This document shows positions 9,849-36,316 of a stretch of 64,000 bases of DNA, piece after piece. The position numbers were made by a program, and so were the translations under genes. The stretch is from an uncultured Gammaproteobacteria bacterium (GTDB lineage Bacteria; Patescibacteriota; Microgenomatia; 2-02-FULL-39-11): assembly GCA_964362665.1 (NCBI GenBank), contig CAYIFB010000001.1, forward strand, positions 48,308 through 112,307, written 5' to 3'. How positions within the stretch are numbered: the first letter of the stretch is position 1; each line of letters starts with the position of its first letter. The notes under the pieces are model-generated. The model saw only the letters and a program-made list of their open reading frames with translations, was not told the DNA's origin and did not search any database.

Positions 9849-10565
9849 TTATTTCGAGACCTTTTTTTTGCCAAGTACTGCTGCATTTTTACGATAAAAT
9901 TGTTTCAAGTGATCGAGGGTGAGAGGTATAATCATTTTTGGCAGTTCCTTAAAAGTTTCGACAGTAAGATAGTCTGCAGATAGTATCCATTGGTTCGTTT
10001 CAAGCCGGAATTTAATTCTGCACCCTTCCATCAGATCCCAGACAGTAAATTTTTTCAGTAAAAAATAATAATCAACAAAATCTTTTACTGTTGCTCGTTG
10101 TTGAATAGTTGCAAATTTATTAATCGCGATATCAAGTAAACTATCAATAGCAAGTCCATTATAATCAATACCTTTCTCAACACGTTTTCCATAGTATTTA
10201 GAAAAATCGACTTTTAATTCGTATTGCGGAGAGAATCGCAGCAAACATTGATATAAAGAATCAAATGGAGATTTAACTTTAAATGTAAAATGATGCTTTT
10301 CACCTTGTTTTATTAACCACTGGAAAATAAATGGAATATCCAATGGTTCTTCTGTGAAGAAATCAAGATCTTCTGAATAGCGGTGATGAAGATAAAATGC
10401 ACTTAACGCAGTTCCTCCGGTAAAATAAAATTTTTTCCGGAAATACCCATCTCTGCTTACTTCATCCAATATGTTTTTTTGATATTTGGTGAGGATTTGT
10501 ACTTTCCCCATATTAAAAGTTCCAATAATAGTTTGCACATAGGAAATAGATGAAGTTTGCCCCAA
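9849..10565 (-). CDS. Nucleotidyltransferase, AbiEii/AbiGii-toxin-like (DUF1814-type). The real start is probably the internal ATG at 10511.
   Basis: Motif FYFTGGTALSAFYLHHRYSEDLDFF (GGTAL…DLD nucleotidyltransferase signature). Paralog of the 33343-33990 gene. Confidence 0.6.
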   Translation of the reverse strand: MGQTSSISYVQTIIGTFNMGKVQILTKYQKNILDEVSRDGYFRKKFYFTGGTALSAFYLHHRYSEDLDFFTEEPLDIPFIFQWLIKQGEKHHFTFKVKSPFDSLYQCLLRFSPQYELKVDFSKYYGKRVEKGIDYNGLAIDSLLDIAINKFATIQQRATVKDFVDYYFLLKKFTVWDLMEGCRIKFRLETNQWILSADYLTVETFKELPKMIIPLTLDHLKQFYRKNAAVLGKKKVSK

Positions 10566-10741
10566 TTTTTTTTAACCTTAGATAAGGAAATTTTCTCTCC
10601 CTTATCCGGGCCATAGTTTATCATCCTTTCCAGGATAAGCAGTCGGCCGCTGGCTGTCTTTTTCAGCTCCTTTATATCGTAATCCCAGATTAGTGCCATA
10701 TAGTGAAATTGTATCAGAGATGTGCTGTTTTGACAACTCAA
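10457..10741 (-). CDS. Small partner protein of the nucleotidyltransferase module (putative antitoxin-like). The likely start is the internal ATG at ~10699.
   Basis: Homologous to the 33149-33412 ORF (LIWDYDIKELKK / LNWNVDEKRFIK; RMINYG / QLINYG; KVKKNWGKL / EVKKAWPMI; LLELLIWGKY / LIEYILWEKLY). Overlaps the downstream nucleotidyltransferase gene in a different frame. Confidence 0.5.
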   Translation of the reverse strand: MSCQNSTSLIQFHYMALIWDYDIKELKKTASGRLLILERMINYGPDKGEKISLSKVKKNWGKLHLFPMCKLLLELLIWGKYKSSPNIKKTYWMK

Positions 10742-10785
10742 ATAATCTAACTTAATCTTCTACCTTGTAGAAGTTTAAAATGTTT

Positions 10786-10887
10786 CTATATCGAGTATAC
10801 CGTCAGCCAGGCAGGGGCAGGGACAGGCCCCAAGGATACATCAAGCCTGAATTACCAGACCACGGTTTCTCTGAGGAATTATCAGTA
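10786..10887 (+). repeat. Right copy of the 102-bp direct repeat. It encodes an orphan pilin C-terminal fragment (…YIEYTVSQAGAGTGPKDTSSLNYQTTVSLRNYQ*).
   Basis: Perfect identity to 9744-9845. Confidence 0.9.
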
Positions 10888-10935
10888 AATAGTCCGATTT
10901 GATTAAATAATCAAAGTATAATATACTATAGGCTT

Positions 10936-13900
10936 ATGCCTATAGAAACGGGTGTAAGTTTTGCGTTAAAGTCACTGGAAAGCCGTGAAGGGAGATCTAT
11001 CACAGCTGATGCCGTGTTAGCAGAGAAAAACCGCCTACTAAAGGTAGAAGGGGTAAATCCAGATTATCGAGGTGAAATACAAAGTGATAATGGTGAATAT
11101 TCATTTACAGATCCTCAGAAAATTACAGAAACTATCGAAGATTTAGTTTCTACTATTAATGCATATTCTAAGATATACCGCGATAATCATTCAAGAACAT
11201 CATTCGTCAGATTAAATGCCGCAGTAGTTGCCTTGGCTGAGATTCGGATTCTCGGACCAAAAACCCTCTACAGCTCTCAAAAACAACAGGAGGAAGGACA
11301 AGTCCGGAGCGTAGGAATCCAGAAAGAACAGGTTGAAGCCGCATTGGCAATTAAATCAATGGACTCAGCAGAAGTTCCAAGTTCTCAAGGTAAAAGCAAT
11401 ACCGATATTCCGATCGCCGCCGTCGCGCGCGCCTGCCTAACAGGAGAACGGGTCCATATTATGGTTCGTGATCCGCAGGCGAAAAGAAGAGACGCTGATA
11501 ATTTGAGGCGGCTGACGTCAGCTTTGAATTTCAATCTTGGAGTGATAGACAGGTCAGAACAAAATGCACAGCCAAAAAAAAGAATAAAAGAATTGGTATT
11601 TATGAGTGATGTGATAGATTTTGCCGCAGGTCTCAGCCAGAGTGAAAAGGAAGAATTCAAAAGACAGCGAAGGAAAGAAATAGATCAGCTGATAAAAGAA
11701 GTTAATTTTTCGCTCATGGCTGACGAGGATCAATCACCAGTTATAGTCGATGATAAAGCTCAACAAGATCCTGATATCATTATCGGCGATGACAAAGATT
11801 TTGTGTTCACCTCGATGACAGATAAACGTAAATTCGTCTGGGGTGAGAAAAAGACATGCGTGATTTGCGATGAAGGTGATCTTCCTTGGACTAAGGGAAG
11901 CAGCTATGAACAGGAGGATGAGGGTTTGTCTCCCCTTTCAGGATATCTGCCCGAATGGATTACATCCTGTGTGGTTGATGAGGTTTGTACTACCATGAGG
12001 AAGGACGGAAAAATCACTTCTGATGCCAATAATCAGCTTGATTTTGTCGATACTCTTGGCGACGAAACTTTGACAGAATATGAAAAACAGGTCAGACTCA
12101 GATTGGAGCTAGTTGCGAAAGACGGCACATTACAGAATCGCTACATGCAAATTTTAAGGAATAAAATAGCGGGTGAGTTTGAAGGGTTGATGAAAACAAT
12201 TCCTGTCCAAAAATACTCTAAAAAGCTTCGGGAAAGAAAGGCAAAATATTTTTTTACCTATGACAGCATGAGAAAACTTGTCAAAAAATACACCTATCAG
12301 GACGTATCAGCCCCAGCCGAATCTGAAAAATTGGATATTCTCCATCCTGCCGACCCCATCGCTTTTTATGATCATGCCTGGTTGACCGCTCAAGAGCTAA
12401 CTACAGGGCAGAACTATTCCCGCACTAATCAGGAAATTGTCATTATTGATCAGGAGACCGGACATCCCCTGCCCACCCATCAGTATTCCGGTTTGGTGGA
12501 TATGGCTGTCGATGTGAAGGAAGGAATCTGCAGTCTCAGATCCAGAACAGATGCTATCCGTGACAGGACAGGTTTTCAGATGTTTTTGCAGAGGAATTAC
12601 GGTAAAAGGCGTATATCTCTCGTTTCAGCTACTCTTGACCATATCCGCGATGAAGTGCAAGAATTTACGGGCGGAAAAGTGATAGATGTCGGTTATTGGA
12701 TAGGCCGTGAAATGTCGATTCCCCGGGTTGAAATATCAGAAGATTTTGGAATGGCCAGAAATAGATTACTGGAACTCATTCAGGAAGCTTCAATAGCTGG
12801 AAGACCGGTGGAAATTGTCTGTGACGATGATGAAGAGTTGGGAGTTTTAAAACAATTTTTTGAAGAATGGAATAACGAAGCAGAAAAATATCATGTAAAT
12901 GTAGTTACATCAAGAAGCGGTTTAGATCATGAAGAAATAGTGTTCGGTCTGGCTGGACAGCTAAACACCCTTACTTTAACTAATCCCCGCGGGGGCAGGA
13001 TGGTTGATATCAAGTCCTCCCCGGAAACCAATAATGCAGGCGGATTACTGTTGATTGTCTGGGGAGCTCTTAAAAATAAGGCGGTATTAAAGCAGGTATT
13101 AGCCCGTACTGCCAGAACTGGAGCTCCGGGAGAATCCCGCTGGATGGTTTATAAATATGGTGGAAAAGCGGCTCTGGAAAATAATCACACCGTGAAAAGG
13201 TACCCGAAAAACATTGAAGCATTAGCGTTACTACAAGATGGTCAAAGGTTGGATTATGACTATAGTTTGCTGGAGAGCATCCATCAGCGGAATAATCTGG
13301 AAGGCCAGACCTTGAGGCTTTTAACCTATGCTTATGATGAATTGAGATTCTCCATGTATAGTGAGGCCCGTCAGAGCCTAGAGCAAGCGATCGGAGACAT
13401 TGCTACACCGGGTTATATCAATGAATATATTAAAATAAGGTGGAACGATATGATAGATTTTATCGCCGATGATTACATTTCACGCTTATCAAGATACAGG
13501 ATGGACTCTATCGGTGATTTGTCAGTTGCCCGGGGATTGGTGATGGGTGAAACTATTCTGAGGCGGATGGCCGATAATTATTCAGGCATAGTATCGATTG
13601 ATACCAAAGATCTATATATCCGACACCCTGTAAGCGGTCGCGATCATTTAATTTCCACAAGCCACCGAAAGCGTTTATTACCGGATAGAGCCACTTTTTT
13701 AAGGTTTAAAGATGTTAGTGTTGTTGATACATCCGGACAGACACATTTCTTGGGAGAAATGCCTCAAGAAGACTCCGATACGAGTATTAGCGCTGGTATA
13801 TATTTTCCACAAAGTCCGCATAAGCTTTATATCCTGACAAGATCAGTAAAGCCTCTTTCCGGCTCGCAGGCCAAAGCAAGTTCTCGCGCTGGATACAGTC

Positions 13901-14070
13901 TAAGAGTTATGTCTTTTGACGACAAAGACCGGTTTGATGGAGACAAAGTTTTCACTGTTTCAGAGTCAGACATAGAGGAATTATTAGGGCATGCTTTCTA
14001 TCCACAAGATGCTCTCAAACAAAAAGCATTATTTAGCCAACTCAGGAAAGAGGGTTTACTTCCTGCTTGA
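10936..14070 (+). CDS. Highly divergent SecA-family paralog (SecA-like DEAD-motor fold) with apparently degenerate ATPase motifs
   Basis: By-eye alignment to SecA across several blocks: [21 protein letters not shown] aligns with [53 protein letters not shown] aligns with [40 protein letters not shown]…EF aligns with LAGMTGTA…EEF. [14 protein letters not shown]…[14 protein letters not shown] aligns with GRPVLVGT…[48 protein letters not shown] aligns with [35 protein letters not shown]. The Walker A region reads SSQGKS and the DEVD-box region reads FMSD. GC content is higher than in flanking DNA. Confidence 0.5.
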   Translation: [1044 protein letters not shown]

Positions 14071-14151
14071 CAAATTTATAGAAAAAATCTATGTTATTAA
14101 TTAATACTATAGAGACTTTACAAAAGACCTATAGCATGATATAATATATAA

Positions 14152-16449
14152 ATGGTAATACATGAAGCTGTTCAAGCAAGTATTACTCCAGTAACCAGAG
14201 ATATACTGATCGGTCCGATTAATCCGTCAGGAATTGCCTCAATTTCAGCTCCAAACTTACTTCTCAATTCACACGCACATGAGTCTCACAGACTCGATTC
14301 TCCTTTAAATCCCAATGGCATTGTTTTTGAAGGTTCTCAAACTAGATATGAAGAATTAAGAGGTGCAGTATCCGAAGTCCTTAGAGATATAGGCATCAGA
14401 GATGTGAAAGACAGGGAAGAGATGCTTCGAAGCTTTGACAGATTACACGAGGGAGAAGAAAAAGCTGTTGCAGACTTTCAGGCAGTACTTGGTGATTTTC
14501 AAGACGGGATAGTGGATCCTATTCTGGAGGGGCTAAAAGACGTTGCTGCATTTATTGACAAAGAGGCTCCCATAATACTTAGTCTTACAGGATTAAGTAT
14601 TGGAGCGTCAATGGCAGGATATTTAGCGGTCGATTATCTTAGAAGAAGGCATGATCATATCATCAAAAGATATCCTCAAGCTAGAAAAGCATTATCTCAT
14701 GTCAGAGGTAATTCTGTTTCTTTGCAACGATTAGCTGTGCTAACAGCATCATTTAGCGGACTATTAGCAGGATGCACTACTGGTATGGTTGTTGTAACAG
14801 CCAGCCAAACTGCGCCGGCGCCGGATGGTTCATCACCATCTCCCGCTCCGGTATCACCGGATAGGACTCTTACCCCGGCTTCAAACGCAACAGTAACCGC
14901 TCCGGACGCTACTCATACTCCCGAGCCTGCTCCTAATATTCCGCCACCGGAAGGGTACCAGCCTGACAGAATTTTGGGATCACAACAGATAGGTGAACCG
15001 TATACAGAAAACGGAGAATTTACCGATTCTGCAGAAAACTCTATCACCCTAGGACATAAATTTTCTGCACAGGATATAAGAGATATTATAAATAGCAAAG
15101 CTCCAAAGTATGGACTTGATGCAGTAACAGCAGAAAGCGTGTTGTCCGATATGGATTTTGCTCTAAACCACTCTTCAGCAGGCGGCCCGGACAGAGAGGT
15201 ATCTTTCGTCTTAAATACTACAAAGGACGAACAGGGTAATCCCCAATCAAAAGGATTCATTATTCTTACCTCAAATAACGGAAATAAAATGTGGATAGCA
15301 AAAGATTCAGCATTAGGAAGATTAAACCTCCAACCTAGCGTCACCTATGGATTGCAGGAATTCAGTTTTGGAAACTGGGTTGGCGGCGAGATTCCAGATA
15401 AAAAAAATACAGTTATCACAGAAATAGATTTAACTCCGTTTGGAGGAATAGGTAATGTAGATTTTGTATTCCAGAATGGAGAACTTTTTGCTTATATGGT
15501 TGTTCAAAACCAGACAAAGGGCGGATTAGTTATTTCCAATGTCTTTGATGCCCGAGAAACTGACCTAACAACACAGTGGAAATTTTTAGAATCATCCACA
15601 CCGGTTCCTGACCCAACGGTTGAACCTACTCCGACGGAAACACCCACTCCAACTCCTGAGCCAACACTACAGCATTTCTCTAACTCTCGATATATTAATG
15701 TTGCCAGTATTTCAAATCAAGTTTTTCAGCTCGATGCATATCCAAATTGGCTACAACAGGGAGATTACGTTTACTCCCATAGTATTGACGTCGGTTCTGA
15801 AACTATTGTTGAGCGTCTAAGTAGCTATCCCGGATTCGAAGGGGCTGTGGTTCATACAGTTGTAAATGGTCCTCCAAAAGGTGAAGGAAATCAACATGCA
15901 TTTATACTTGTTGAGCGTCTTAAAAATGCTCAGATAATCGGAGCTTGGGCAATCGAGAAATCATTTGAAGTCATAACAGCACCCCCAAAATTAATACATT
16001 CCGGGTTAGGTTCAAAGGATTATCCCGAAAATCCAATCGCGATGTTGTCCTCACTTGGAATGCACCTTCCAGATTATGAGTTTAGAGTGGTAGGAGGTAC
16101 TCGACTAATTTCAAATGGAGATGGAAACTACTATGTTGCGTTGTATAGAGTTAACCGCGATCAGTCAAACATAAGTGATCCTAGAAAAGTTCAAATAAAA
16201 ATTGGCGAAAAATACGGTTTACGTGAGGAGTTAATTTACGACGAACAAAACGCAAATAAACCAACAATACGATCTTTTCTCATTACATTCGATGGTAATG
16301 GTAATAAAACATATACGTTTATTGGTCAACTTCCATTAAGTGATGACATTATTGAAATTAAAGGTGACATGTCCTGGTTGGGTGCGTACACAGGTTATTA
16401 TACAAAAGGTCTTGAGGTTGTTGAAGGTGAATTAGAGATACTTAGGTAA
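14152..16449 (+). CDS. Membrane/surface protein: ~200-aa N-terminal region, one TM helix (with a lipobox-like LAGC), a Pro/Thr/Ser-rich linker and a large C-terminal beta-rich extracytoplasmic domain
   Basis: Hydrophobic segment LAVLTASFSGLLAGCTTGMVVVTA. Linker APAPDGSSPSPAPVSPDRTLTPASNATVTAPDATHTPEPAPNIPPPEGYQ. A second [23 protein letters not shown] linker. Same higher-GC composition as the SecA-like gene. Confidence 0.4.
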   Translation: MVIHEAVQASITPVTRDILIGPINPSGIASISAPNLLLNSHAHESHRLDSPLNPNGIVFEGSQTRYEELRGAVSEVLRDIGIRDVKDREEMLRSFDRLHEGEEKAVADFQAVLGDFQDGIVDPILEGLKDVAAFIDKEAPIILSLTGLSIGASMAGYLAVDYLRRRHDHIIKRYPQARKALSHVRGNSVSLQRLAVLTASFSGLLAGCTTGMVVVTASQTAPAPDGSSPSPAPVSPDRTLTPASNATVTAPDATHTPEPAPNIPPPEGYQPDRILGSQQIGEPYTENGEFTDSAENSITLGHKFSAQDIRDIINSKAPKYGLDAVTAESVLSDMDFALNHSSAGGPDREVSFVLNTTKDEQGNPQSKGFIILTSNNGNKMWIAKDSALGRLNLQPSVTYGLQEFSFGNWVGGEIPDKKNTVITEIDLTPFGGIGNVDFVFQNGELFAYMVVQNQTKGGLVISNVFDARETDLTTQWKFLESSTPVPDPTVEPTPTETPTPTPEPTLQHFSNSRYINVASISNQVFQLDAYPNWLQQGDYVYSHSIDVGSETIVERLSSYPGFEGAVVHTVVNGPPKGEGNQHAFILVERLKNAQIIGAWAIEKSFEVITAPPKLIHSGLGSKDYPENPIAMLSSLGMHLPDYEFRVVGGTRLISNGDGNYYVALYRVNRDQSNISDPRKVQIKIGEKYGLREELIYDEQNANKPTIRSFLITFDGNGNKTYTFIGQLPLSDDIIEIKGDMSWLGAYTGYYTKGLEVVEGELEILR

Positions 16450-16463
16450 TAAAGTGATTAGAT

Positions 16464-17528
16464 TTAATAACCAATAAAATGAAATAATTTTCTTGAAAAT
16501 GTATTGTAACCGAATTTCTTTGAATATCTGTACAGCGTGTTATGATCAAATGATGTTTTGAGAAGTATATTGATAGCATGTGAAAGAGCCTTAGTTGAAT
16601 ACTCATAGAAAAAAACTCCCGTTTTTGATGGAATAATGGTTTCTTTTAATCCTCCACTATAATGAGCGATCACTGGTATTCCGTGTGCCATCGCTTCAAT
16701 TGGTGCTATTCCGAAGTCTTCATTTTTTGCAGTCATTATAAATGCATAAGATGATGAATATAACTTATCAAGATCGGATTCAGGAACAAATCCTATAAAT
16801 TCTACATATTTGTTAGTATACTGATATAATTCTTTTAAATATGCTTTATCAATTCCCTTCCCGGCTATTTTTAAAAATATCTTCATTTTTGTAGCCGCAT
16901 GTATTGCTAGTTCTAGACCTTTTGTTCTGTCTAATCTTGAAACGATAAGAAAATATTTTGGTATACTTTTTATAATAATATTCTTTGGAATTCTAACTGG
17001 CGGATAAATAACAGTGGATTGGACTAAACATTTTTTAAATAGTATTTGTTGAGTATAACAAGAGTTGGCAACAATGTTTGTATTACCTTGAGTCGATGAT
17101 ATATAGAACTTTCTAAGGTAATTCGTATACGGTATATATTTTTGTAATCGTTTCTGAGGAGATAATCCAAAGATATTTTTCGGGATGCTGTGAATATACT
17201 GTATATGTTTGGGTCTTACAACTTTAATTGAATTTGAAAATAACGCGGAAGAACTTGATATGACGATATCATATTTCTCAAATGAATACTGTTTCCAAAT
17301 GAATGGAGAAATCATCTGAATTATCGACGTTTTACTCCTTGATAAAAATGGAAAAGGGAAAGTATGAATTCTATTTCGAGGAAAGTTAGAAAAAAACATA
17401 TTTAAAATAGAGTTATCTGCAAATGAGGTGTACAAATCAGCATTTGGATACATTTTAAGAAGAGATTGAAGCACTCGTTCAGCTCCACCAAATTCCAAAA
17501 GAGAATCATGAATAATAGCGCATTTCAT
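16464..17528 (-). CDS. Glycosyltransferase family 4 (GT-B, 'glycosyl transferase group 1')
   Basis: C-terminal motif EDFGIAPIEAMAHGIPVIAHYSGGLKETI. Confidence 0.75.
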   Translation of the reverse strand: MKCAIIHDSLLEFGGAERVLQSLLKMYPNADLYTSFADNSILNMFFSNFPRNRIHTFPFPFLSRSKTSIIQMISPFIWKQYSFEKYDIVISSSSALFSNSIKVVRPKHIQYIHSIPKNIFGLSPQKRLQKYIPYTNYLRKFYISSTQGNTNIVANSCYTQQILFKKCLVQSTVIYPPVRIPKNIIIKSIPKYFLIVSRLDRTKGLELAIHAATKMKIFLKIAGKGIDKAYLKELYQYTNKYVEFIGFVPESDLDKLYSSSYAFIMTAKNEDFGIAPIEAMAHGIPVIAHYSGGLKETIIPSKTGVFFYEYSTKALSHAINILLKTSFDHNTLYRYSKKFGYNTFSRKLFHFIGY

Positions 17529-17530
17529 CT

Positions 17531-19987: not shown

Positions 19988-20008
19988 ATAGTATATACAT
20001 TCATTATA

Positions 20009-23567: not shown

Positions 23568-23573
23568 TGTTAG

Positions 23574-25485: not shown

Positions 25486-25489
25486 CCTT

Positions 25490-27616
25490 TTACTTCAGTA
25501 GCGGACATGAGTTTCCAAACCACTTAAATTTGCATGGCCCTATATCGGTACTTAGGCCTAAAATATCAAGCTGAAACTGTAACAGAGGAATACTCAATTG
25601 CGGTTCTCCCTTACCCCGAAGTGTACTTCCGAATCCAATATTAAAATCCATTCCATTGGCATTTTTAAAAATAGACAAGTCGGTATTAATTGATTTTATA
25701 TTCCATAGTTTATTTCCGGTTGTTTTATCCATTTTTATATCCTGAATATTACTTATAAAAGCATTATAGTCCATTGCTACTTTTTCAGGGTTTGCAGGGT
25801 CTAATTGAATTCCAATACCATTATAGAGAATTACATTATTCTTAATAACCGTATTTTCATGTCTTGTTTTAAAAACCGTGGGATCATAATCGGCCACTCC
25901 TTCCGGGTTAGCTAAATTTATTCCGGTAGATGAATATCCCACTAAATTATTAAGAAATACATTATTATTTGCTTCAATTTGTCTTGGATAGACGTGTATT
26001 GCGTCTCCCGTATTATTCAAAATAATATTGTTGGTTAATTTAATACCACTGGCGTTACTGATAAATATCCCATGAGCATATCCTTTTCCATTATGTTTTT
26101 CGTCGCAATTTGAATATCCGGAATTATTTCTTATAATGTTTCCTGTAACAATAGTGTTGAGATATTTACCGCCAAAAAATTTCAGCCCGCCACAGGCAGA
26201 AATACTTTGACAAACATTTTCTATAACATTATTTTCAATATAAATATCACTTATTCTTCCGGCATCCTTTTCGTAACCAAACATGTGTATTCCGTACATC
26301 ATATCGTCGTGAATGTGATTATTCTTAATAAGTGATTTACTGATTTTGGTAAGGGATATATCCGGGGTAGTTGAAAGTAATGAATTGTTATTAAAGTCTG
26401 ATCCAATAATCTTTATATCAGTTATATTAGATGGATAGTTATTTTTACCATTTACCATTATGGAACTGTTTTCGATATTGCTAAATGTACTATTTAATAC
26501 TGTTACATTATTAATGACTGCGCTTTGTTCTACTCCATTAATATTAATTCCATTTTCTGAATATTCTATTTTTATATTCTGAATTTTGATATTAGAAATG
26601 ATATTGTTTGCTTGTGGATTTATAATTAACGCACTATATCCGCCAAAAAATCGGAACGTAAGACCGTTAATTTCAATATTAGATGCATTATTCAATTCGA
26701 TCCCATTTGATTGGTTACTTATCTCAATATTTAATTTCTGAGGTTTTTGATCTCCAAGTGGCCAAAGAAATAATCGTTTAGTATCTTGGTCATAATACCA
26801 CTCTCCAGGTGCATCGAGCAGTTTAAATCTGTTTTCTATGTAATATTTAGAATATGGGCCGATTCCCTTTTCATTTGAGCCAAAAAAGGAGAATCCGATA
26901 GGACCTTTAAAATAAAGTTTTCCGTTAATACTATCAAATGAATCTATTTCTTTGTTCCAGATAAAATTACCACATCTCGATCCTCCATCGACTATATGAA
27001 CAGTTGCTCCACTAAGGTAGGCTTCACCTTTTAAATGAATTTTATCAACGAGAACTTTATCGGATAATTCAGAATCAGATAATGACCACCAATTTTCGCT
27101 TATTCTCCCATTTACAGGTGGTATATAATTGGGAGATCTGGCCACGTTTAATTTTTTTACCGTAGCATCAGAGGCTATTTCATATAATAATTTTGGAATA
27201 AAATTTTCATTAAGCTTTGTATAAAATATTTTCGAATAATTACTACTAGGAATTTGAGAACAGGATTTATTATCGCATTCTTCCCAAAGATAATCAGATG
27301 ATGGAACTGATCCGGTGAGTATAACTGGTCCTTGAAGATTCGGATCAGCGGTTATTCGTAGTGGAGATTTATTTGTACCCTTATTATTTATAATTATGCT
27401 TTCACGGTACACTCCAGGCAACACAGAGATAGTTGTTCCGGAAGTCGCGGAGTTAATTGCTTTTTGAATTGTTTTAAATGGATTTAATTTTGAACCTTTA
27501 TTAATATCATTTCCAATTGGAGATACATATACTGTGGTATTATTTGATTGTTTTTGAGTATATATAAAAGTGACAACAAAAATAACTATTAGAAGAATAA
27601 ATAGCGTTTTCATCAT
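25490..27616 (-). CDS. Secreted right-handed parallel beta-helix repeat protein (pectate-lyase fold, carbohydrate-active or adhesin-like)
   Basis: Signal peptide. Repeated NN(I/V)xxN…G(I/V) beta-helix rungs (NNIILNNTGDAIHV, NNVFLNNLVGYSSTGINL, GNIIRNNSGYS). Confidence 0.6.
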   Translation of the reverse strand: MMKTLFILLIVIFVVTFIYTQKQSNNTTVYVSPIGNDINKGSKLNPFKTIQKAINSATSGTTISVLPGVYRESIIINNKGTNKSPLRITADPNLQGPVILTGSVPSSDYLWEECDNKSCSQIPSSNYSKIFYTKLNENFIPKLLYEIASDATVKKLNVARSPNYIPPVNGRISENWWSLSDSELSDKVLVDKIHLKGEAYLSGATVHIVDGGSRCGNFIWNKEIDSFDSINGKLYFKGPIGFSFFGSNEKGIGPYSKYYIENRFKLLDAPGEWYYDQDTKRLFLWPLGDQKPQKLNIEISNQSNGIELNNASNIEINGLTFRFFGGYSALIINPQANNIISNIKIQNIKIEYSENGININGVEQSAVINNVTVLNSTFSNIENSSIMVNGKNNYPSNITDIKIIGSDFNNNSLLSTTPDISLTKISKSLIKNNHIHDDMMYGIHMFGYEKDAGRISDIYIENNVIENVCQSISACGGLKFFGGKYLNTIVTGNIIRNNSGYSNCDEKHNGKGYAHGIFISNASGIKLTNNIILNNTGDAIHVYPRQIEANNNVFLNNLVGYSSTGINLANPEGVADYDPTVFKTRHENTVIKNNVILYNGIGIQLDPANPEKVAMDYNAFISNIQDIKMDKTTGNKLWNIKSINTDLSIFKNANGMDFNIGFGSTLRGKGEPQLSIPLLQFQLDILGLSTDIGPCKFKWFGNSCPLLK

Positions 27617-27732
27617 TTTAAATAGATTAGAATTTAAATTTATATTATGATTATATAATATTCTTAAGAAGCTGATAGTAGTATTAAATTTCTAAGTAAA
27701 TAGATTTTTATTAACATTTTATTATAATAAGA

Positions 27733-29469
27733 ATGTGCGGCATTGTAGGAAAAATATATTTTCATCCTCATACGATTCAAAAATCAAAAGAGAGTGTTCT
27801 TATTCAAAAGTCTCTTGAAAAACTGCACCATCGGGGTCCTGATGATAGGGGATATTATATAGATGAAAATGTTTGGTTGGGATCGACCCGGTTAAAAATA
27901 CTAGATCTTTCCCCTGCCGGACATCAACCTTTTCAAAACGAAGATAAAAGTTTGTCACTCGTATTTAATGGCGAGATTTATAACTGGAAAGAGATAAAAG
28001 TAAAGTTAAGAAAAAGACATAAGTTTATTTCGCACACAGATGCAGAGGTCTTACTGCATTTATATGAAGAGGAAGGAGTAAATTGCCTCAAATACCTTCG
28101 TGGTATGTTTGCCTTCGCCATTTGGGATAAAAAGAGAGGAGAGTTATTTATAGCACGAGACAGAATCGGGAAAAAACCGGTAAAATATTATTACAACGAT
28201 AAATTTTTTGTATTTGCCTCAGAACTGAAAGCATTTATTGATCATCAGGATGTTCCAAAAGAGATAGATTGGGAAGCTATTGATGAATTTCTTATCTGTC
28301 GATATGTTCTATCACCTAAAACCGGGTTTAAGAATGTCTACAAGCTTCCTCCGGGGCATTATATGAGAGTCATGTCTACTGGAGAAGTTGTGATTAAAAA
28401 ATATTGGCAATTAGATTTCAGTCAAAAATTAGCATTATCAGAGCAAGAATGGCAAAAGTTAATATATGATAAGTTATTAGAATCTGTCCGTTTACGATTG
28501 CAAAGCGATGTTCCACTGGGAGTACATTTATCAGGGGGAATTGACTCAAGTTTGATTACAGCTTTGGTAAGTTTGGAGTCAAAGAAACAAGTAACAACCT
28601 TTTCTATAGGATTCGAAGAATCAGAATACAATGAACTTCCTTATGCACAACTTGTGACAGATCGATACAATACAGATCATCATTCCATGATAGTTAGATC
28701 TGATGTAATAAATCTCCTTCCGCAATTGATTTATCAATACGAAGAACCTTTTGCCGATCCTTCGATGCTTCCCACCTGGTATTTGATGAGAGAAAGTAAG
28801 AAGTTTATGACAGTAGCGATAAACGGAGAAGGCGGTGATGAGAACTTTGCCGGGTATCCATGGTATTTGTTTACGAGCTTCAATAATATCATGAAAAGAT
28901 TACCTTTAAAAACACAAATGAGCTATATCTTTAAAAAATTATATTCAACAACAAAAAGAAAAGATTTTGATACCTTGGCAAAATATCTGCTATCAAAAAA
29001 AAATTTTTCAAATCTGGACGAACATCTTCACCATGATATAAGCCATTATTTACCGGATGATCTTCTTGTAAAAACAGATATTTCATCGATGGCACATTCT
29101 CTTGAGGTTCGCTCCCCTTTTCTTGATCAGGAATTTGTAGAGCTTTGTGCAAAAATGCCAGCAAATTTGAAGCTTCGGAAATTTCAAAATAAGTATATAC
29201 TAAGAAAAACAGCAGAAAAGCTTATTCCTAGAAAATGTTTCACGAGAAGAAAGCAAGGATTTTTACCTCCGCTTGATCGATGGTATAGAGGAGAGTTATC
29301 AGGATTTATAGCATCTCAGTTATTAGATAAAAAATTTCTTTCTTATAATATTTTTAAAAAGGAAAGTGTAATAAAACTTTTAACAGATCATCAAAATTGG
29401 TCATCTAATAACGCCTATATATTGTGGACGATATTATGTTTGAAAAATTGGTTAGATGAATGGTTTTAA
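27733..29469 (+). CDS. asnB: Asparagine synthase (glutamine-hydrolysing), AsnB family
   Basis: MCGIVG N-terminal nucleophile (Cys2). SGGIDSS PP-loop. Located in the glycan locus, as is common for AsnB-like amidotransferases. Confidence 0.8.
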   Translation: MCGIVGKIYFHPHTIQKSKESVLIQKSLEKLHHRGPDDRGYYIDENVWLGSTRLKILDLSPAGHQPFQNEDKSLSLVFNGEIYNWKEIKVKLRKRHKFISHTDAEVLLHLYEEEGVNCLKYLRGMFAFAIWDKKRGELFIARDRIGKKPVKYYYNDKFFVFASELKAFIDHQDVPKEIDWEAIDEFLICRYVLSPKTGFKNVYKLPPGHYMRVMSTGEVVIKKYWQLDFSQKLALSEQEWQKLIYDKLLESVRLRLQSDVPLGVHLSGGIDSSLITALVSLESKKQVTTFSIGFEESEYNELPYAQLVTDRYNTDHHSMIVRSDVINLLPQLIYQYEEPFADPSMLPTWYLMRESKKFMTVAINGEGGDENFAGYPWYLFTSFNNIMKRLPLKTQMSYIFKKLYSTTKRKDFDTLAKYLLSKKNFSNLDEHLHHDISHYLPDDLLVKTDISSMAHSLEVRSPFLDQEFVELCAKMPANLKLRKFQNKYILRKTAEKLIPRKCFTRRKQGFLPPLDRWYRGELSGFIASQLLDKKFLSYNIFKKESVIKLLTDHQNWSSNNAYILWTILCLKNWLDEWF

Positions 29470-30644
29470 TTAAAAATATGAACATAGCTCTTATTGTTTA
29501 CTCAAATTATTCAAGCGATGCCAGGGTGAGAAGATATGCAGAAGTTTTGGCAGAAGACGGTCATCTGGTTGATGTAATCTGTCTAAGGGAAAATTATATA
29601 CCCAAAGAGAAGAAAATAAGACTGATTCAATATCCTATCAGACGCATAAGGCGTGGAATATCTTGGTACGTTATTGATTATTTTATGTTTTTTCTATACT
29701 CGTTTTTTATTTTGTCAATAAATTATTTTTCTAAAAAATATAAAATTGTACACGTCAATAATATGCCTGATTTTCTAGTTTTTACCGCAATCGTTCCCAA
29801 AATTCTTGGAAGTAAAATAATTCTGGATATGCACGATCCCATGCCGGAATTATATATGTCTAAATTCCATGTGAATGATAATAATATTTTTGTAAGATTA
29901 TTGAAGATTGTAGAGAAAACAGCTTTTCTTTTTGCTGATAAAGTTATAACTGCAAATGATGTATTTCGACAGCTATTTTTATCAAGAAATGATATTACAG
30001 ATAACCATATAAGCGTGATCTTAAACTGCCCGGATAATAATATTTTTAATAATAATTTTAAAAGAATAATAAAGGATAAATATTTTAACGTAATCTATAT
30101 GGGAACAGTTGATGATAGATTCAGAATTGATTTGACTATTAGTACAATGCCAGTTCTTATCAAAAAAATTCCTAATATCCGATTGGTAATTATTCCAAAA
30201 ATTGAGGAAGAAGGAATATATTTTCAAAATCTGAAAAAATCGGTAACAGAGAAAAAACTTGAAAATTTTGTGATATTTAAAAAACCTTTACCTTTAGAAA
30301 AGATTGCTGAAGAATTAAAATCCGCTGATATAGGCATAGTTTTAGCGGATAATAATGTTTTTACCGATAAGATATTTCCGGTAAAATTATTGGAATTTAT
30401 TCAGATGAAAATACCTATTATTGCTACAAAAACAAAATTGCTAGGTAAATATTTTACTGATAAAGAAATATTTTTTCTCCCGGAGAATTCGGTTGATGAA
30501 TTTTCAAAAGCGGTGACTGCATTATTTAACAACCCTCGTTTGCGAGGTCAACTAACCACGAACGCCAATAAATATTTATTGGTTAATAATTGGCGAAATG
30601 AACAAGTGAAATATATTAAAATCGTACGAAATTTAATTGAATAA
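29460..30644 (+). CDS. Glycosyltransferase (GT-B, GT4-like)
   Basis: Two Rossmann-like halves. The C-terminal half contains the EX7E-like region (…LPLEKIAEELKSADIGIVL…KLLEFIQMKIPIIAT). Confidence 0.5.
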   Translation: MVLIKNMNIALIVYSNYSSDARVRRYAEVLAEDGHLVDVICLRENYIPKEKKIRLIQYPIRRIRRGISWYVIDYFMFFLYSFFILSINYFSKKYKIVHVNNMPDFLVFTAIVPKILGSKIILDMHDPMPELYMSKFHVNDNNIFVRLLKIVEKTAFLFADKVITANDVFRQLFLSRNDITDNHISVILNCPDNNIFNNNFKRIIKDKYFNVIYMGTVDDRFRIDLTISTMPVLIKKIPNIRLVIIPKIEEEGIYFQNLKKSVTEKKLENFVIFKKPLPLEKIAEELKSADIGIVLADNNVFTDKIFPVKLLEFIQMKIPIIATKTKLLGKYFTDKEIFFLPENSVDEFSKAVTALFNNPRLRGQLTTNANKYLLVNNWRNEQVKYIKIVRNLIE

Positions 30645-30660
30645 TATTATATATACTTGA

Positions 30661-32010
30661 ATGCAAAAGAAGTATTTTTATCTCGGGCTGATTTTATTTT
30701 TTTTAATTACCTACCTCTCTCCCGGCAAAGTCATCTATTTCAGTGCGTATCTCGTCAGCACTTTTTTTTTCTATTTGGCGACCAAAAAAATTACCGAGAG
30801 TTTGATTTATTCTCTGATATTATCTTTATTTTTTGATTCTAGTATTGGAGCGAGTCTGTTTGCTATGCAGCCTCCCGAATGGAATTTGGGATCGGGTTAT
30901 GCGATTACACCGACTACATTAATATTACTCTCATTAATACCTTTTTCATTTAACAAAACATTCAGTAAGTTAAAAGCGCCGGATATAATAATTGCGATAT
31001 TTTATTGTATTAGTGTTTTTAATGTTTTCCTATTCCCCTATCCCAATTCCTTTTTCGGTTTAATCGGAATTAGTGAGTTTGTACTTTTATATTATATTTT
31101 AAGGATACATGTGAAAATTGAGCAGTTTGATTTTATAAAAATTATCCTTCTTAGTCTTTTGTGTTTTCAGATAACGATTGCAACAATACAGATTGTCAGA
31201 GGTACTTCCGCCGGATTTTTAGCTGAATCATCAAATCTAGAGCGCCCATACGGATATACGGCCAGCGAAGATGTAAATATTTTCCGTGTACCGGGAACCT
31301 TCGGACATCCGAATTTTCTGGCTTCATTTCTTCTGTTGGGAGTTTCATTTGTATTATTTAGTTCCCCTAGTAGTATTTTATATCTAGGATTGGGTGCATT
31401 AGATTTGGTGGTATTAATCTTTACTTCCAGCCGTGCAGCCTGGTTTATCTTTATGCTTATTATTGCTTTTTGGATTTGGTATCAGTTAAAAATTCTAAAA
31501 AAATCGGATAAAATAAGAACCACTTTAACTATATTTATTTTAATTATTGTTTTATTAATTCCTTTTATTATTACCCGCCTCAACACATTACCGCAGGCAT
31601 TTGATCCAAATGGGTCTGTAGATGTGCGCTATCAACTTAATAATGAAGCAATTAACATCATTTCCAAAAATCCAATAACCGGTGTCGGATTAAATAGAGC
31701 GATAGAATTTTACAGTAATTTTTTTTCGCCGGATGCCCTTCTTAGTATTATTGATGGTAGTTTTTATAAAATACATAATACTATTTTGGAAATTAGCACG
31801 GAGATAGGGGTTTTTGGAGGAATTATATTTTTAGCATTTTTCTTTACCATTTTTAAAACCGGGCTGAAATATATTCATGAAAAAAATAATTTTAAAATAG
31901 CTGCAACGATGGGACTTTTTGGAGTATTTTGTATTTCACTTTTTAATCCTTTCTTTCACACCCCACAAATGCGCTATCTTTTCCTCCTCTCCGCGATGAT
32001 TCTGGCGTGA
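30661..32010 (+). CDS. O-antigen ligase/polymerase family membrane protein (Wzy_C-like)
   Basis: About 10 TM helices with a large periplasmic loop (…RVPGTFGHPNFLASFLLLG…) typical of the O-antigen ligase family. Its last ~70 nt are re-used downstream in two partial copies. Confidence 0.6.
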   Translation: MQKKYFYLGLILFFLITYLSPGKVIYFSAYLVSTFFFYLATKKITESLIYSLILSLFFDSSIGASLFAMQPPEWNLGSGYAITPTTLILLSLIPFSFNKTFSKLKAPDIIIAIFYCISVFNVFLFPYPNSFFGLIGISEFVLLYYILRIHVKIEQFDFIKIILLSLLCFQITIATIQIVRGTSAGFLAESSNLERPYGYTASEDVNIFRVPGTFGHPNFLASFLLLGVSFVLFSSPSSILYLGLGALDLVVLIFTSSRAAWFIFMLIIAFWIWYQLKILKKSDKIRTTLTIFILIIVLLIPFIITRLNTLPQAFDPNGSVDVRYQLNNEAINIISKNPITGVGLNRAIEFYSNFFSPDALLSIIDGSFYKIHNTILEISTEIGVFGGIIFLAFFFTIFKTGLKYIHEKNNFKIAATMGLFGVFCISLFNPFFHTPQMRYLFLLSAMILA

Positions 32011-32048
32011 TAGAAAAAACTAGTTATTTATGGTAAACTATTTTAAAC

Positions 32049-32318
32049 ATGAAGATAGTAAAAAAGGTATTTGAATACGAGTTACCCATAAAAGTCCAGA
32101 AAGAAAAAGACGGTTATATTGCCACTTGTCCGATCTGGAATGCTTGTTATGTTCAAGGAGATACCATTGATGAGGTAACGGCAGAAATTACCACAGTTGC
32201 CCAGGTGTTAATCGATATTTATAAAGAGGAAAATTTAGCTATTCCCCTAAAAAAGGTAAATGAACAATCCGTAAAAGAAAAATTCTCTTTCACCCTACCA
32301 GTGCTCGTATCTGCATGA
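32049..32318 (+). CDS. hicB: HicB-family antitoxin (UPF0150, RNase-H-like fold)
   Basis: EYELPIKVQKEKDGYIATCPIWNACYVQGDTIDEVTAEITTVAQVLIDIY matches HicB. Confidence 0.7.
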   Translation: MKIVKKVFEYELPIKVQKEKDGYIATCPIWNACYVQGDTIDEVTAEITTVAQVLIDIYKEENLAIPLKKVNEQSVKEKFSFTLPVLVSA

Positions 32319-32533
32319 AGATTCCACCTCTTTCCTATAGGGACGTAATACACAAAGCAAGAAAAGCAGGGTTCGTATTCAGAAGAGCAACTGGCGGGAC
32401 TCATGAAATTTGGTGGAATGAGAAGAAAAGGAAAACCGCAGTTATTCCTCACCATCATGAAATCCGTCCCGGAACCATTAGAAGTATTATCAAACAACTG
32501 GGGATAACCGATAAAGAATTCTTAAAATTATGA
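32315..32533 (+). CDS. hicA: HicA-family mRNA interferase toxin
   Basis: GFVFRRATGGTHEIWWNEKKRKTAVIPHHHEIRPGTIRSIIKQLGI matches HicA. ATGA overlap with hicB. Confidence 0.7.
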   Translation: MKIPPLSYRDVIHKARKAGFVFRRATGGTHEIWWNEKKRKTAVIPHHHEIRPGTIRSIIKQLGITDKEFLKL

Positions 32534-32574
32534 GAAATTCATATCCCTTCTTGCTGATCAACCAAATGAGGTAC

Positions 32575-32606
32575 TTTTTCCTCCTCTCCGCGATGATTCT
32601 GGCGTG
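32575..32606 (+). repeat. Second copy (3' portion, 32 nt identical) of the Wzy-like gene 3' end. A diverged upstream part begins at ~32538.
   Basis: ttttcctcctctccgcgatgattctggcgtga is identical to 31979-32010. Confidence 0.85.
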
Positions 32607-32608
32607 AA

Positions 32609-33019
32609 TTGATATGTTTTGAAGTAGTTGATTTAACTTATTTCACATGCCAGAATATACTTATGATAACAAAAAATGATCTAGGACAATTAAGGAAAGG
32701 TTTAGGGAAAGAAATTGGTGATTCGGCAAATAAACTGAAAGAAGAATTAAAAGCGGAAATCAATGCTTCAGCAAAAAGTCTCAGAAAAGAATTCAAAGAG
32801 GATATCGAAACCGCAGTAGTTCAAGTTATTAATGCAGTTATCAAACACACTGCCTCAAAAGAGGAGTTAAAGAGAGTTAAGGGAGAATTGAGTGAAAAGA
32901 TTGATACTATAAAATCAGAATTAAGTTCAGAAATAAAAGCCGATACTCCTACCCCGCAGGAATTTACAAGTCACGAAAAGAGAATAAGTAAATTGGAATC
33001 TGCTGTGTTTCCTTCTTAA
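32609..33019 (+). CDS. Hypothetical coiled-coil protein. The probable start is the internal ATG at ~32663.
   Basis: Lys/Glu-rich heptad-like sequence. No recognisable domain. Bounded by copies 2 and 3 of the Wzy 3'-end repeat. Confidence 0.35.
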   Translation: MICFEVVDLTYFTCQNILMITKNDLGQLRKGLGKEIGDSANKLKEELKAEINASAKSLRKEFKEDIETAVVQVINAVIKHTASKEELKRVKGELSEKIDTIKSELSSEIKADTPTPQEFTSHEKRISKLESAVFPS

Positions 33020-33066
33020 ATCCTTCTTTCACACCCCACAAATGCGCTATCTTTTCCTCCTCTCCA
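33019..33066 (+). repeat. Third copy (5' portion, ~47 nt with 1 indel) of the Wzy-like gene 3' end
   Basis: aatccttctttcacaccccacaaatgcgctatcttttcctcctctcc matches 31948-31995. Confidence 0.85.
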
Positions 33067-33148
33067 CTCTTATCTTAAGCCAGGAATGTACATTACCAGT
33101 ACGAACGTATAGTCATTTACCGGGAGAAAGTGATATACTTGGCTAATT

Positions 33149-33412
33149 ATGCTCAACTGGAATGTTGATGAGAAAAGGTTTATAAAAGAAGACCCGGAGG
33201 GGTATAAACGCTGGAGGATCGAACAACTGATAAATTACGGTCTGGATGGAGAAAAACTGGACAAGGATGAGGTAAAAAAAGCCTGGCCCATGATAAAAGA
33301 GAACATTGATCCGTATAAGCGCAGGCTTATAGAATATATCTTATGGGAAAAACTATACTTACTCCCACTCAACGGAAATTTCTGGAGTGCATCCAGAATT
33401 ACGAAGAGATAA
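33149..33412 (+). CDS. Small partner protein of the nucleotidyltransferase module (putative antitoxin-like). Paralog of 10457-10741.
   Basis: See the alignment under the 10457-10741 feature. It overlaps the downstream gene by 70 nt in a different frame, as in the first copy. Confidence 0.5.
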   Translation: MLNWNVDEKRFIKEDPEGYKRWRIEQLINYGLDGEKLDKDEVKKAWPMIKENIDPYKRRLIEYILWEKLYLLPLNGNFWSASRITKR

Positions 33413-33990
33413 CCCGCTGGTTTTATCTGACCGGTGGAACTGCTCTTTCGGAAGATATTGATCTGTTTTCTACAAGTGAAGTAGATGATAAGACTATTGA
33501 TAAATTTTTGGATGATATTCGTCCACAACTGCAAATTACTTCAATAAAAAAAGACCATATTTCAGGATTGTTCTTATATAAATTAACTTTTTCAAACGGA
33601 GAAACATTGAAAGTTGATTTTAATGAATATGCATTTGAACCAATTGAAAAAAGTACTAAAAATTTCGGGAAATTACAGGTAGACAGTTTCTACGATATAG
33701 CAGTAAATAAAGCCTATACCATATCGGGACGCTTTAAATCTCGTGATTTTATCGATCTCTATTTTATCCTCATTCGAGAGGAATTCTCTTTTGAACAAAT
33801 TCTTTCGCGTGTACCAGATAAATTTGGAGTGCAGATCGATTCAGTATTTTATGCAAGCCAACTTCTTCGGGCAGGTGATTTGCCAAAAGATTATCCCCCT
33901 ATGCTTGTCCCTTTTGAATTTGATGATATGGTGAAGTTTTTTGTGAAAGAAGCAAAACGATTGGGAAAAAAGGCTTTTAAGAACCCTTGA
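33343..33990 (+). CDS. Nucleotidyltransferase, AbiEii/AbiGii-toxin-like. Paralog of 9849-10565.
   Basis: WFYLTGGTALSEDIDLFS nucleotidyltransferase motif. Similar length and architecture to the first copy. Confidence 0.6.
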   Translation: MGKTILTPTQRKFLECIQNYEEITRWFYLTGGTALSEDIDLFSTSEVDDKTIDKFLDDIRPQLQITSIKKDHISGLFLYKLTFSNGETLKVDFNEYAFEPIEKSTKNFGKLQVDSFYDIAVNKAYTISGRFKSRDFIDLYFILIREEFSFEQILSRVPDKFGVQIDSVFYASQLLRAGDLPKDYPPMLVPFEFDDMVKFFVKEAKRLGKKAFKNP

Positions 33991-34014
33991 TTTCCGATCT
34001 TATTATATTTATAC
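33986..34014 (+). promoter_or_regulatory. Sigma70-like promoter candidate (TTGATT-17-TATACT) for the cassette-1 exported protein and peptide
   Basis: Read from the sequence immediately after the nucleotidyltransferase stop. The downstream ATG is at 34029. Confidence 0.3.
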
Positions 34015-36298: not shown

Positions 36299-36316
36299 TA
36301 ATAATAGATAGACATT

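Follow-up and report, generated by a model that had tools for sequence, protein, structure and literature searches.

How does a nucleotidyltransferase of a known toxin family come to start inside the gene of its small upstream partner, and is the overlap between the two genes real? The question arises twice within a 64,000-nucleotide (nt) stretch of DNA from an uncultured bacterium (GenBank assembly GCA_964362665.1, contig CAYIFB010000001.1, forward-strand positions 48,308 to 112,307; hereafter the window), in which a first-pass annotation had noted two copies of a pair made up of a small protein and an AbiEii-like nucleotidyltransferase (NTase). By comparing homologous loci we find that the NTase start is genuine, that the overlap is conserved and that its long form is under selection beyond that acting on the NTase protein itself. 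We consider it fairly probable that each copy is a bicistronic toxin–antitoxin (TA)-like module of the DUF1814 (AbiEii/MenT) kind in which AbiEi is replaced by an unannotated, predicted four-helix small protein lacking a DNA-binding domain, and which follows the scheme of selection, expression and neutralisation proposed below. The genes and their overlaps are these:

10457–10699, minus strand: copy A small-protein gene, 80 amino acids (aa), MALIWDYD...LLIWGK-YKSSPNIKKTYWMK; putative antitoxin, stop codon at 10459–10457
9849–10511, minus strand: copy A DUF1814/AbiEii-type NTase gene, 220 aa, ATG at 10511–10509; putative toxin with all conserved motifs intact
10457–10511, minus strand: copy A dual-coding overlap, 55 nt, in which NTase codons 1–18 correspond to small-gene tail residues W63–K80
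33149–33412, plus strand: copy B small-protein gene, 87 aa
33343–33990, plus strand: copy B AbiEii-type NTase gene, 215 aa, with a unique 9-aa deletion between motif I and motif II; probably inactive
33343–33412, plus strand: copy B dual-coding overlap, 70 nt

The coordinates and frames of both overlaps were as the first-pass annotation had them: the upstream gene runs out of frame into the NTase start by 55 nt in copy A and 70 nt in copy B, and in both copies the NTase start lies at offset +2 (equivalent to −1) relative to the small-gene frame. What has to be corrected is the start of the copy A small gene. Its open reading frame (ORF) is open from an upstream TTG at 10741, previously taken as the start, but the ATG at 10699 in the same frame is most likely the true one, since homologues begin M-x-x-I-W-D-Y-D. 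The two modules are themselves related, with 41% identity between the small proteins over 46 aa (E=6e-8) and 32% identity between the NTases over their full length (E=5e-27), a paralogy far beyond chance. Together with the Pfam matches of both NTases given below, this upholds the proposal that a two-gene AbiEii-like module is present twice in the window.

Both NTases are members of the DUF1814/AbiEii family. Pfam PF08843 (AbiEii; gathering cutoff 22.5 bits) matches NTase A with 50.8 bits (E=2.7e-13) and NTase B with 25.4 bits (E=1.6e-5), and the PADLOC AbiEii models match both as well (E=3.7e-15 and E=1.1e-6, respectively). NTase A has 1638 homologues, which begin MGK; the best 120 are 217–220 aa long, cover 97–100% of the query and all carry PF08843, and a metagenome scan for further close relatives yielded 5 loci only. 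In an alignment of 28 NTases the residues G32-G33-T34, S46-x-D48-x-D50, D102 (within KVDF), D123, K132...R139, D144 and D147 are invariant. They correspond to the four DUF1814 motifs, namely motif I (hGG/S), motif II (DxD), motif III and the DUF1814-specific motif IV (PMC7450476). NTase A carries all of these residues, and NTase B keeps them with a spacer between motifs I and II that is 9 aa shorter. The Ser two residues before the first catalytic Asp (S46-x-D48) belongs to the invariant set and is found in both copies. A profile search of the PDB returned a sole solved relative by sequence, JHP933 from Helicobacter pylori (4o8s/4ok0, E~7e-7).

We gathered 80 loci with an NTase profile from one-genome-per-species bacterial assemblies, added the 5 metagenome loci, and ran hidden Markov models of both proteins on all stop-to-stop ORFs; 82 pairs could be analysed. 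A small-protein homologue lies directly upstream on the same strand at 84 of 90 NTase hits, and the two proteins are never within one ORF among the gathered loci. Most loci come from Patescibacteria (Microgenomates/Davies-, Levy-, Roizman-, Gottesmanbacteria and others), with single loci labelled Elusimicrobia, Nitrospirota, Acidobacteria, Bacteroidota and Promineifilaceae. The out-of-frame overlap noted in the window is retained in these homologues: the genes overlap in 77 of the 82 pairs, by 4–103 nt, and the NTase is in the −1 frame relative to the small gene in 69 pairs and in the +1 frame in 13. The most frequent overlap lengths are 55 nt (11 pairs), 13 nt (10), 19 nt (8), 52, 22 and 16 nt (6 each), and 4 and 70 nt (5 each). 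It is thus the overlap itself that is conserved, and not the length of 55–70 nt seen in the window, which is a clade-specific long form.

The conserved overlap is centred on a universal junction, ATGG, in which the Trp codon of the small protein and the ATG of the NTase have TG in common. The end of the small protein, L-L-(I/L)-W-(G)-K, and the NTase start M-G-K are thereby written on the same bases (...ATA TGG GGA AAG / ATG GGG AAA G...). ATG occupies NTase profile position 1 in nearly all 82 pairs, and the NTase residues 4–18 that lie inside the long overlap (I-L-T..Q..I-L-D/E) are conserved, with T8 and Q11 invariant. Because this conservation extends to loci with an overlap of only 4–25 nt, the overlap-encoded NTase residues are evidently translated; from these alignments the NTase start is genuine and the overlap is no annotation error. 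The suggestion that the NTase start might have been mis-called can accordingly be dropped: aligned homologues share one start ATG, and conservation at the protein level extends to the N-terminal residues that the overlap encodes. Coding conservation of the small ORFs is strong, and no downstream shift of the NTase start is seen, the reverse of the two outcomes that had been expected to speak against the module.

The small proteins form a real, unannotated family, which to judge from its sequences and a structural model has no recognisable helix-turn-helix (HTH) and no known fold. Small protein A has 482 homologues, mostly of 79–82 aa with a subset of 66–68 aa, and small protein B has 226, mostly of exactly 87 aa; an exhaustive profile search for the family gave 250 clusters at 50% identity, with members of 63–90 aa. 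Neither small protein matches NCBIfam or PADLOC, and in Pfam only the family DUF6922 appears, below threshold. An AlphaFold2 (AF2) model of small protein A built on a 52-sequence alignment reached a predicted local distance difference test (pLDDT) score of 83, with helices at residues 9–12, 16–29, 39–44 and 53–64, and a tail (residues 65–80) that is of low confidence and predicted to be disordered. Searching the PDB with this model in Foldseek returned no relative (best E=4.3), and profiles of the small proteins run against PDB sequences gave no match with E<0.1; neither AbiEi nor MenA1 (PDB 8AN5) was among the chance-level matches at E≤10. The description of the small protein as far shorter than AbiEi and devoid of an HTH therefore stands, with the absence of NCBIfam and PADLOC matches, the sub-threshold Pfam match and a four-helix AF2 model without a Foldseek match in the PDB all in line with it.

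Membership in DUF6922 (PF21956) was rejected. Copy A scores 12.6 bits against a gathering threshold of 27 and copy B has no match; weak matches occur in 18 of 27 small proteins of copy A's clade (best E=0.0024), and none of 81 diverse members of the small-protein family matches at E≤0.01. The likeness lies in an N-terminal W-D-x-D...I-L-E-R-x-I-N-Y-G segment in that clade, whereas every score falls under the gathering threshold. Gene callers miss the small ORFs or mis-start them (66-aa as against 80-aa calls, N-terminal extensions), with the result that the family is under-annotated. Three rare architectures were seen: an N-terminal HTH_11 domain joined to the small domain (P0367, 139 aa), an in-frame fusion of the small domain with a complete AbiEii NTase (P0446, 282 aa), and a deletion remnant in which the first half of the small protein runs into the second half of the NTase (P0405, 210 aa).

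Long overlaps are concentrated in particular clades, among them the two deep clades of copies A and B. Clade A, to which copy A belongs, has 27 loci, 17 of them with an overlap of 52–55 nt; clade B, that of copy B, has 8 loci with overlaps of 58–88 nt; and a third small group has overlaps of 52 and 103 nt. In a neighbour-joining tree, subclades with short overlaps (4, 13, 19, 22, 25 and 37 nt) are nested within clade A. The length depends on one codon, that for Leu in the NTase segment I-L-T. It is CTC (22 loci) or CTT (4) where the small frame reads on, while a stop at this position is made by TTA (6), CTA (3) or CTG (3), or by the Ile codon ATA (1), giving rise to the 19–25-nt class of overlap. 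Because the following Thr codon begins with A, this single Leu codon acts as a switch between an overlap of 19–25 nt and one of at least 52 nt.

When we resampled the synonymous codons of the NTase according to codon usage elsewhere in these genes (2000 runs), the small frame was expected to stay open for at least 52 nt in 4.9±1.9 clade-A loci, with a maximum of 14 in any run, as against the 17 of 27 observed. Codon entropy at conserved residues is likewise lower inside the overlap than outside, at 0.54 versus 1.32 bits in clade A (permutation P<1e-4) and 0.49 versus 1.07 bits in clade B (P=3e-4), although the loci are phylogenetically related, so that these P-values are optimistic, and clade B comprises only 5–8 sequences; synonymous sites at about 50% protein identity should be saturated, which tempers this caveat. 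The favoured codons in the overlap are rare elsewhere in the genes, as for I6 ATC (18%), L7 CTC (7%), T8 ACC (24%) and L15 TTG/CTG (28%), and in the small-gene frame they read S-S-P and [FY]-W. Even when the simulated frames were forced open, the identity of the resulting tail peptides fell short of that observed, at 0.27±0.02 versus 0.48 for clade A and 0.33±0.04 versus 0.61 for clade B, and a tail pattern S-x-P-x(4-5)-[FY]-W is common to both clades. These comparisons indicate that the long overlap is under selection beyond that on the NTase protein itself, and make it a clean natural case in which a long out-of-frame overlap has been validated and selection can be measured on both frames.

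Three predicted expression signals lie at or near the starts of the genes:

10708–10736, minus strand: copy A promoter-like sequence TTGTCA-17-TG-TACAAT, whose −10 box ends 8 nt before the small-gene ATG
33110–33139, plus strand: copy B promoter-like sequence TAGTCA-18-TG-TATACT, whose −10 box ends 9 nt before the small-gene ATG
10490–10510, minus strand: predicted hairpin between UGGGGA (10510–10505) and UCCUCA (10495–10490), weak (about −5.4 kcal/mol), which would occlude the NTase start codon

An extended −10 box (TGnTAnAAT) ends 6–7 nt upstream of the small-gene ATG in 50 of the 82 loci. From its position the mRNA is predicted to be leaderless or nearly so, which suggests a leaderless or near-leaderless operon. 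Shine-Dalgarno (SD)-like motifs are not enriched upstream of either the small gene or the NTase compared with random intragenic positions, and 55 of the 82 NTase starts have none upstream, equal to the intragenic background. Given the overlap and this lack of SD enrichment, the NTase start would be an SD-poor AUG buried in a translated ORF. In genomes at large, −4 and −1 overlaps dominate and long overlaps are usually without coupling, and in E. coli and Haloferax termination–reinitiation drops sharply as the distance grows and has almost vanished at 38 nt (PMC10666635). We propose that the operon would be transcribed from the extended −10 promoter with the small protein made first, and that the NTase would be translated in dependence on the small gene. 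Where the overlap is short, termination–reinitiation would couple the NTase to the small gene; where it is long, as in both window copies, the stop codon would lie 52–70 nt away, which may lower toxin output and leave the antitoxin in excess. Control of the overlap length by a single codon makes this link between overlap, coupling and toxin:antitoxin ratio directly testable with a few point mutants.

Several other accounts of the overlap have to be set against selection on the small-gene frame. Long overlaps in prokaryotic annotation are often start-site errors, and a true NTase start downstream of the small-gene stop would leave no real overlap; copy A indeed has an in-frame TTG at NTase codon 15. 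A start there would, however, leave a 13-nt overlap, no further in-frame ATG occurs in the N-terminal part of the two NTases, and neither the near-universal ATG at profile position 1 in the 82 pairs nor the conservation of residues 4–18 at overlaps of 4–25 nt would be expected, so that we give next to no credence to an annotation artefact. The overlap might instead be a neutral by-product in which a stop was lost, the small ORF ran on to the next chance stop and the conservation of the tail was imposed by the N-terminus of the NTase. Stop loss and read-on to the next stop is the usual origin of long overlaps (PMC10666635), and the tail is predicted disordered and is missing or shortened in most family members and in several nested clade-A subclades. 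We nevertheless think neutrality improbable: resampling around a fixed NTase protein predicts 4.9 open frames rather than 17 of 27, the predicted tail identity is lower even when the frame is open (0.27 versus 0.48 and 0.33 versus 0.61), and the rare codons CTC, ATC, ACC and xTG are fixed at several separate positions. Programmed −1 frameshifting where the two genes meet (G_GGA_AAG when copy A is read in the small-gene frame), which would make a fusion of the small protein to the NTase, could draw on the −1 position of the NTase in 69 of 82 pairs, on a canonical X_XXY_YYZ heptamer at the junction in copy A and most of clade A, and on the natural in-frame fusion P0446 of 282 aa. The heptamer is not conserved, however, being TGG GAA AAA in copy B and TGG CCC AAA or TGG AAA AAA in other clades, and it follows automatically from writing W-G-K and M-G-K on the same bases; 13 pairs are in the +1 frame, no downstream stimulatory structure was found, and a fused ORF occurs in 0 of 86 loci. 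With a heptamer that is only partial, no stimulator and no fused ORF among the loci, we rejected frameshifting as the mechanism of the family and regard it as very unlikely in general.

Selection might also act on the RNA. In this account the hairpin of UGGGGA with UCCUCA, 9 nt downstream, masks the NTase start until ribosomes translating the small ORF open it, as in classical translational coupling. A 6-bp stem is predicted in most clade-A loci with a long overlap, where the pairing probability of the start region exceeds 0.9 compared with about 0.7 in shuffles, and locus L008 has a single compensatory change; I6 ATC and L7 CTC, the two synonymous positions with the strongest bias, both fall in the stem, which could explain part of the bias there. 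The hairpin is weak, however (about −5 kcal/mol), is not enriched across the family (0.64 versus 0.62 in shuffles) and is not conserved in clade B, covariation is nearly absent, and T8 ACC (Pro), L15 xTG (Trp) and the KK-x-[FY]-W motif lie outside the stem and are left unexplained. We judge this account unlikely, if less so than neutrality. A similar, low degree of belief attaches to the view that the pair is not a TA module at all, the NTase being a benign enzyme that modifies RNA or small molecules, or a defence effector, and the small protein its obligate subunit, specificity factor or regulator. What counts in favour of this view is that the small protein is unlike any known antitoxin, that the toxin role of the subfamily is an extrapolation, that the NTases are short (~218 aa) compared with AbiEii and that not all DUF1814 proteins are linked to antitoxins (PMC7450476). 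The order with the small gene first, the tight coupling and the patchy, multi-copy distribution are on the other hand typical of TA modules, as are the HicBA neighbour, the cassette-like repeats and the decay of a toxin beside an intact partner described below.

If each copy is indeed a TA-like module, the NTase would act as other MenT/AbiEii toxins do. These toxins, which are actively studied, block translation via tRNA modification and have strikingly diverse antitoxins; they add nucleotides to tRNA acceptor ends (PMC7450476, PMC10435456), so that nucleotide addition to tRNA 3′ ends would be the activity expected here. The small protein would neutralise the NTase by binding and may promote auto-phosphorylation of S46 in S46-x-D48-x-D50. 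MenA1 and MenA3 induce auto-phosphorylation of their toxins at a Ser/Thr that precedes the catalytic Asp by two residues (PMC11375011), the acceptor sites being T39-x-D41 in MenT1 and S78-x-D80 in MenT3 (PMC11375011, PMC7450476). The case for the small protein as the antitoxin is circumstantial and consists of its upstream gene, its near-obligate synteny with the NTase, the architectures P0367 and P0446, and the decay of the copy B toxin beside an intact partner. The in-frame fusion P0446 implies a physical partnership of the two proteins, and the HTH_11 domain of P0367 echoes the layout of AbiEi.

By analogy, the closest functional precedent for the small protein would be MenA1, a 68-aa antitoxin without a DNA-binding domain whose disordered C-terminus is dispensable for neutralisation (PMC10435456). 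The MenA1–MenT1 pair (Rv0078B–Rv0078A) of Mycobacterium tuberculosis likewise combines a DUF1814 toxin with a very short helical upstream antitoxin lacking a DNA-binding domain, and has a Ser/Thr two residues before the first catalytic Asp (T39-x-D41; here S46-x-D48); by this analogy, phosphorylation may also occur in the present subfamily. MenA1, however, is a V-shaped two-helix protein whereas the small protein is predicted to have four helices, with no sequence or fold similarity detected between them. The NTases are related at the superfamily level only, the PDB profile search not having reached MenT1, and the window subfamily is set apart by its conserved ATGG junction and dual-coding tails. 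No homology of the small partner to MenA1 emerged: MenA1 was recovered neither by the profile searches nor by Foldseek. The window modules share with AbiE a PF08843 NTase with a PADLOC AbiEii match and motifs I–IV, and an upstream partner in bicistronic order, but AbiEi belongs to COG5340 and has a winged HTH and a C-terminal antitoxin domain in ~200 aa, whereas the partner here has 63–90 aa and no HTH, and the window-type NTase (~218 aa) is about 70 residues shorter than a typical AbiEii. We did not assign the modules to the AbiE system, their partners of 80 and 87 aa having no NCBIfam or PADLOC match, only a sub-threshold Pfam match and no fold match in the PDB.

The closest solved structure, JHP933 (jhp0933) of H. 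pylori, offers a parallel of another sort, since the upstream jhp0932 overlaps jhp0933 in part (PMC7450476). The upstream partners of JHP933 relatives on Campylobacter plasmids (L091, 876–2097, and L092, 822–1959) overlap the NTase as well, by 38 nt and 8 nt. Unlike the small protein these partners are 110–131 aa long and show no detectable homology to it (hhalign probability 0.1%), and the host range and the context, conjugative plasmids and plasticity zones, are different. Overlap with an upstream partner thus recurs in distant DUF1814 branches.

A number of points weigh against the TA reading and its expression scheme, in addition to the relatedness of the loci mentioned above. Toxicity, neutralisation and interaction are things that we infer by analogy for the whole subfamily; similarity of the small protein to AbiEi, to MenA1 or to a solved structure was not detected, and a concatenated model of the small protein and the NTase gave a pLDDT of 34. 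The leaderless layout is deduced from promoter position alone, and the −10 boxes in the window end 8–9 nt, not 6–7 nt, before the ATG. The tail is predicted disordered, and it is dispensable, given that most of the family lacks it and that truncations have arisen repeatedly in clade A. Lastly, the codon constraints could stem in part from selection on the RNA, given the start-codon hairpin predicted for clade A.

With these points in mind, we put forward tentatively, and as something we would sooner doubt than expect, a more specific proposal for the long form. In it the 52–88-nt overlap would be a true dual-coding segment that supplies the antitoxin with a functional tail, for example a toxin-binding or active-site-occluding element or a degron, and the synonymous Leu codon would be an evolutionary switch that has repeatedly turned this tail on and off, retuning both the translation of the toxin and its neutralisation. 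If true, the dual-coding tail, the Leu switch and the leaderless layout would amount to a novel family of antitoxins and a novel way of expressing DUF1814 toxins, with its centre in bacteria of the candidate phyla radiation (CPR). The kind of module, a TA-like DUF1814 NTase pair, is known; new are the small partner family, the selection on two frames with a one-codon switch, and the leaderless layout. The partner family is large (~250 clusters at 50% identity), unannotated and mostly found in Patescibacteria/CPR, and to our knowledge almost nothing has been established experimentally about TA biology in these bacteria.

The two copies in the window appear to differ in their state of preservation, owing to a change in NTase B:

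33444–33453, plus strand: junction of a 27-nt in-frame deletion between two CTYTCRGAA (L-S-E) repeats, placed by DNA alignment with loci L087 and L088

The first-pass annotation had read GGTAL...D(L/I)D in both NTases. GGTAL...S-E-D-(L/I)-D is present in both, but copy B lacks nine residues between GGTA and LSEDID, which had gone unremarked. Relatives read L-S-E-F-Y-L-K/H-H-R at this place between motifs I and II, and the nine residues are found in 7 of 7 clade-B relatives as well as in the nearest relatives L087 and L088 (~82% DNA identity), so the spacer from G-G to D has 5 residues in NTase B instead of 14. A repeat-flanked 27-nt gap is typical of slippage, and we infer from the alignment that the deletion is recent and repeat-mediated. 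Judging from the pol-β fold, the loss should abolish the helix by which the catalytic aspartates are positioned. The copy B toxin is probably dead, next to an intact partner, while copy A looks functional from its sequence. An addiction function and translational regulation, both raised by the first-pass annotation, are proposals rather than findings. Because the toxin of copy B is probably inactivated, at least one of the copies may no longer be a working addiction module.

Direct repeats lie next to both copies:

9736–9845, no strand assigned: direct repeat copy 1, the true 3′ end of the pilin-like gene 9313–9846
10778–10887, no strand assigned: direct repeat copy 2, which with copy 1 flanks a 1042-bp unit carrying copy A
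33019–33083, no strand assigned: third and most diverged copy of a 65-nt repeat from the 3′ end of gene 30661–32010, just upstream of copy B

The two repeats around copy A are 110 nt long and 98% identical, and the same arrangement is reproduced in L086, an independent 1484-nt ENA contig from Hainich groundwater. The copy A unit resembles a cassette inserted at the 3′ end of a gene with target duplication, for which a Campbell-type or a site-specific mechanism is possible. Ahead of copy B, the final 65 nt of a Wzy_C/O-antigen-ligase-like gene (31946–32010, in gene 30661–32010) recur at 32543–32607 (82%) and at 33019–33083 (75%), following hicBA and a 136-aa ORF (32609–33019), respectively, and becoming progressively diverged. 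The region looks like a row of small cassettes with decaying copies of the same gene end between them, copy B being the final cassette. The hicBA genes encode a TA pair, HicB-like (32049–32318, weak Pfam match) and HicA (32315–32533, E=5e-16), with a 4-nt overlap, immediately ahead of copy B; in L087 and L088, the loci most closely related to it, hicBA abuts the small-B gene directly, without the 136-aa ORF.

Among 12 other loci examined, two have repeats at the borders of the module. In L011 a 44-nt repeat (2728–2771 and 3671–3714) flanks it, and L004 has two tandem NTase modules, the upstream one without a recognisable small gene, with a common 56-nt repeat of the promoter region (1764–1819 and 2758–2813). 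Viral contigs gave two marginal partial matches only, leaving phage carriage unsupported. The claim that both copies sit in insertion hotspots is thus borne out in part, by the 110-nt direct repeat around copy A and the thrice-repeated 65-nt gene end before copy B, both with cassette-like signs; the repeats support cassette-like insertion at the 3′ ends of genes. Downstream of copy B, a 163-nt direct repeat (34018–34180 and 36306–36468, 88% identical) spans the 5′ parts of the ORFs 33987–34532 and 36317–36877 and flanks two minus-strand ORFs, 34732–35547 (P-loop-like) and 35746–36228, which may be another hotspot insertion. Copy A adjoins a 1044-aa ORF (10936–14070) whose sole annotation is a weak, sub-threshold match to SecA_DEAD (E=4e-4). 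Elsewhere in the window, degenerate repeats with a 12-nt period (42987–43688, in ORF 42252–45614) encode Thr/Pro-rich linkers in a 1120-aa protein, and a related stretch is found at 15625–15669 in ORF 14152–16449.

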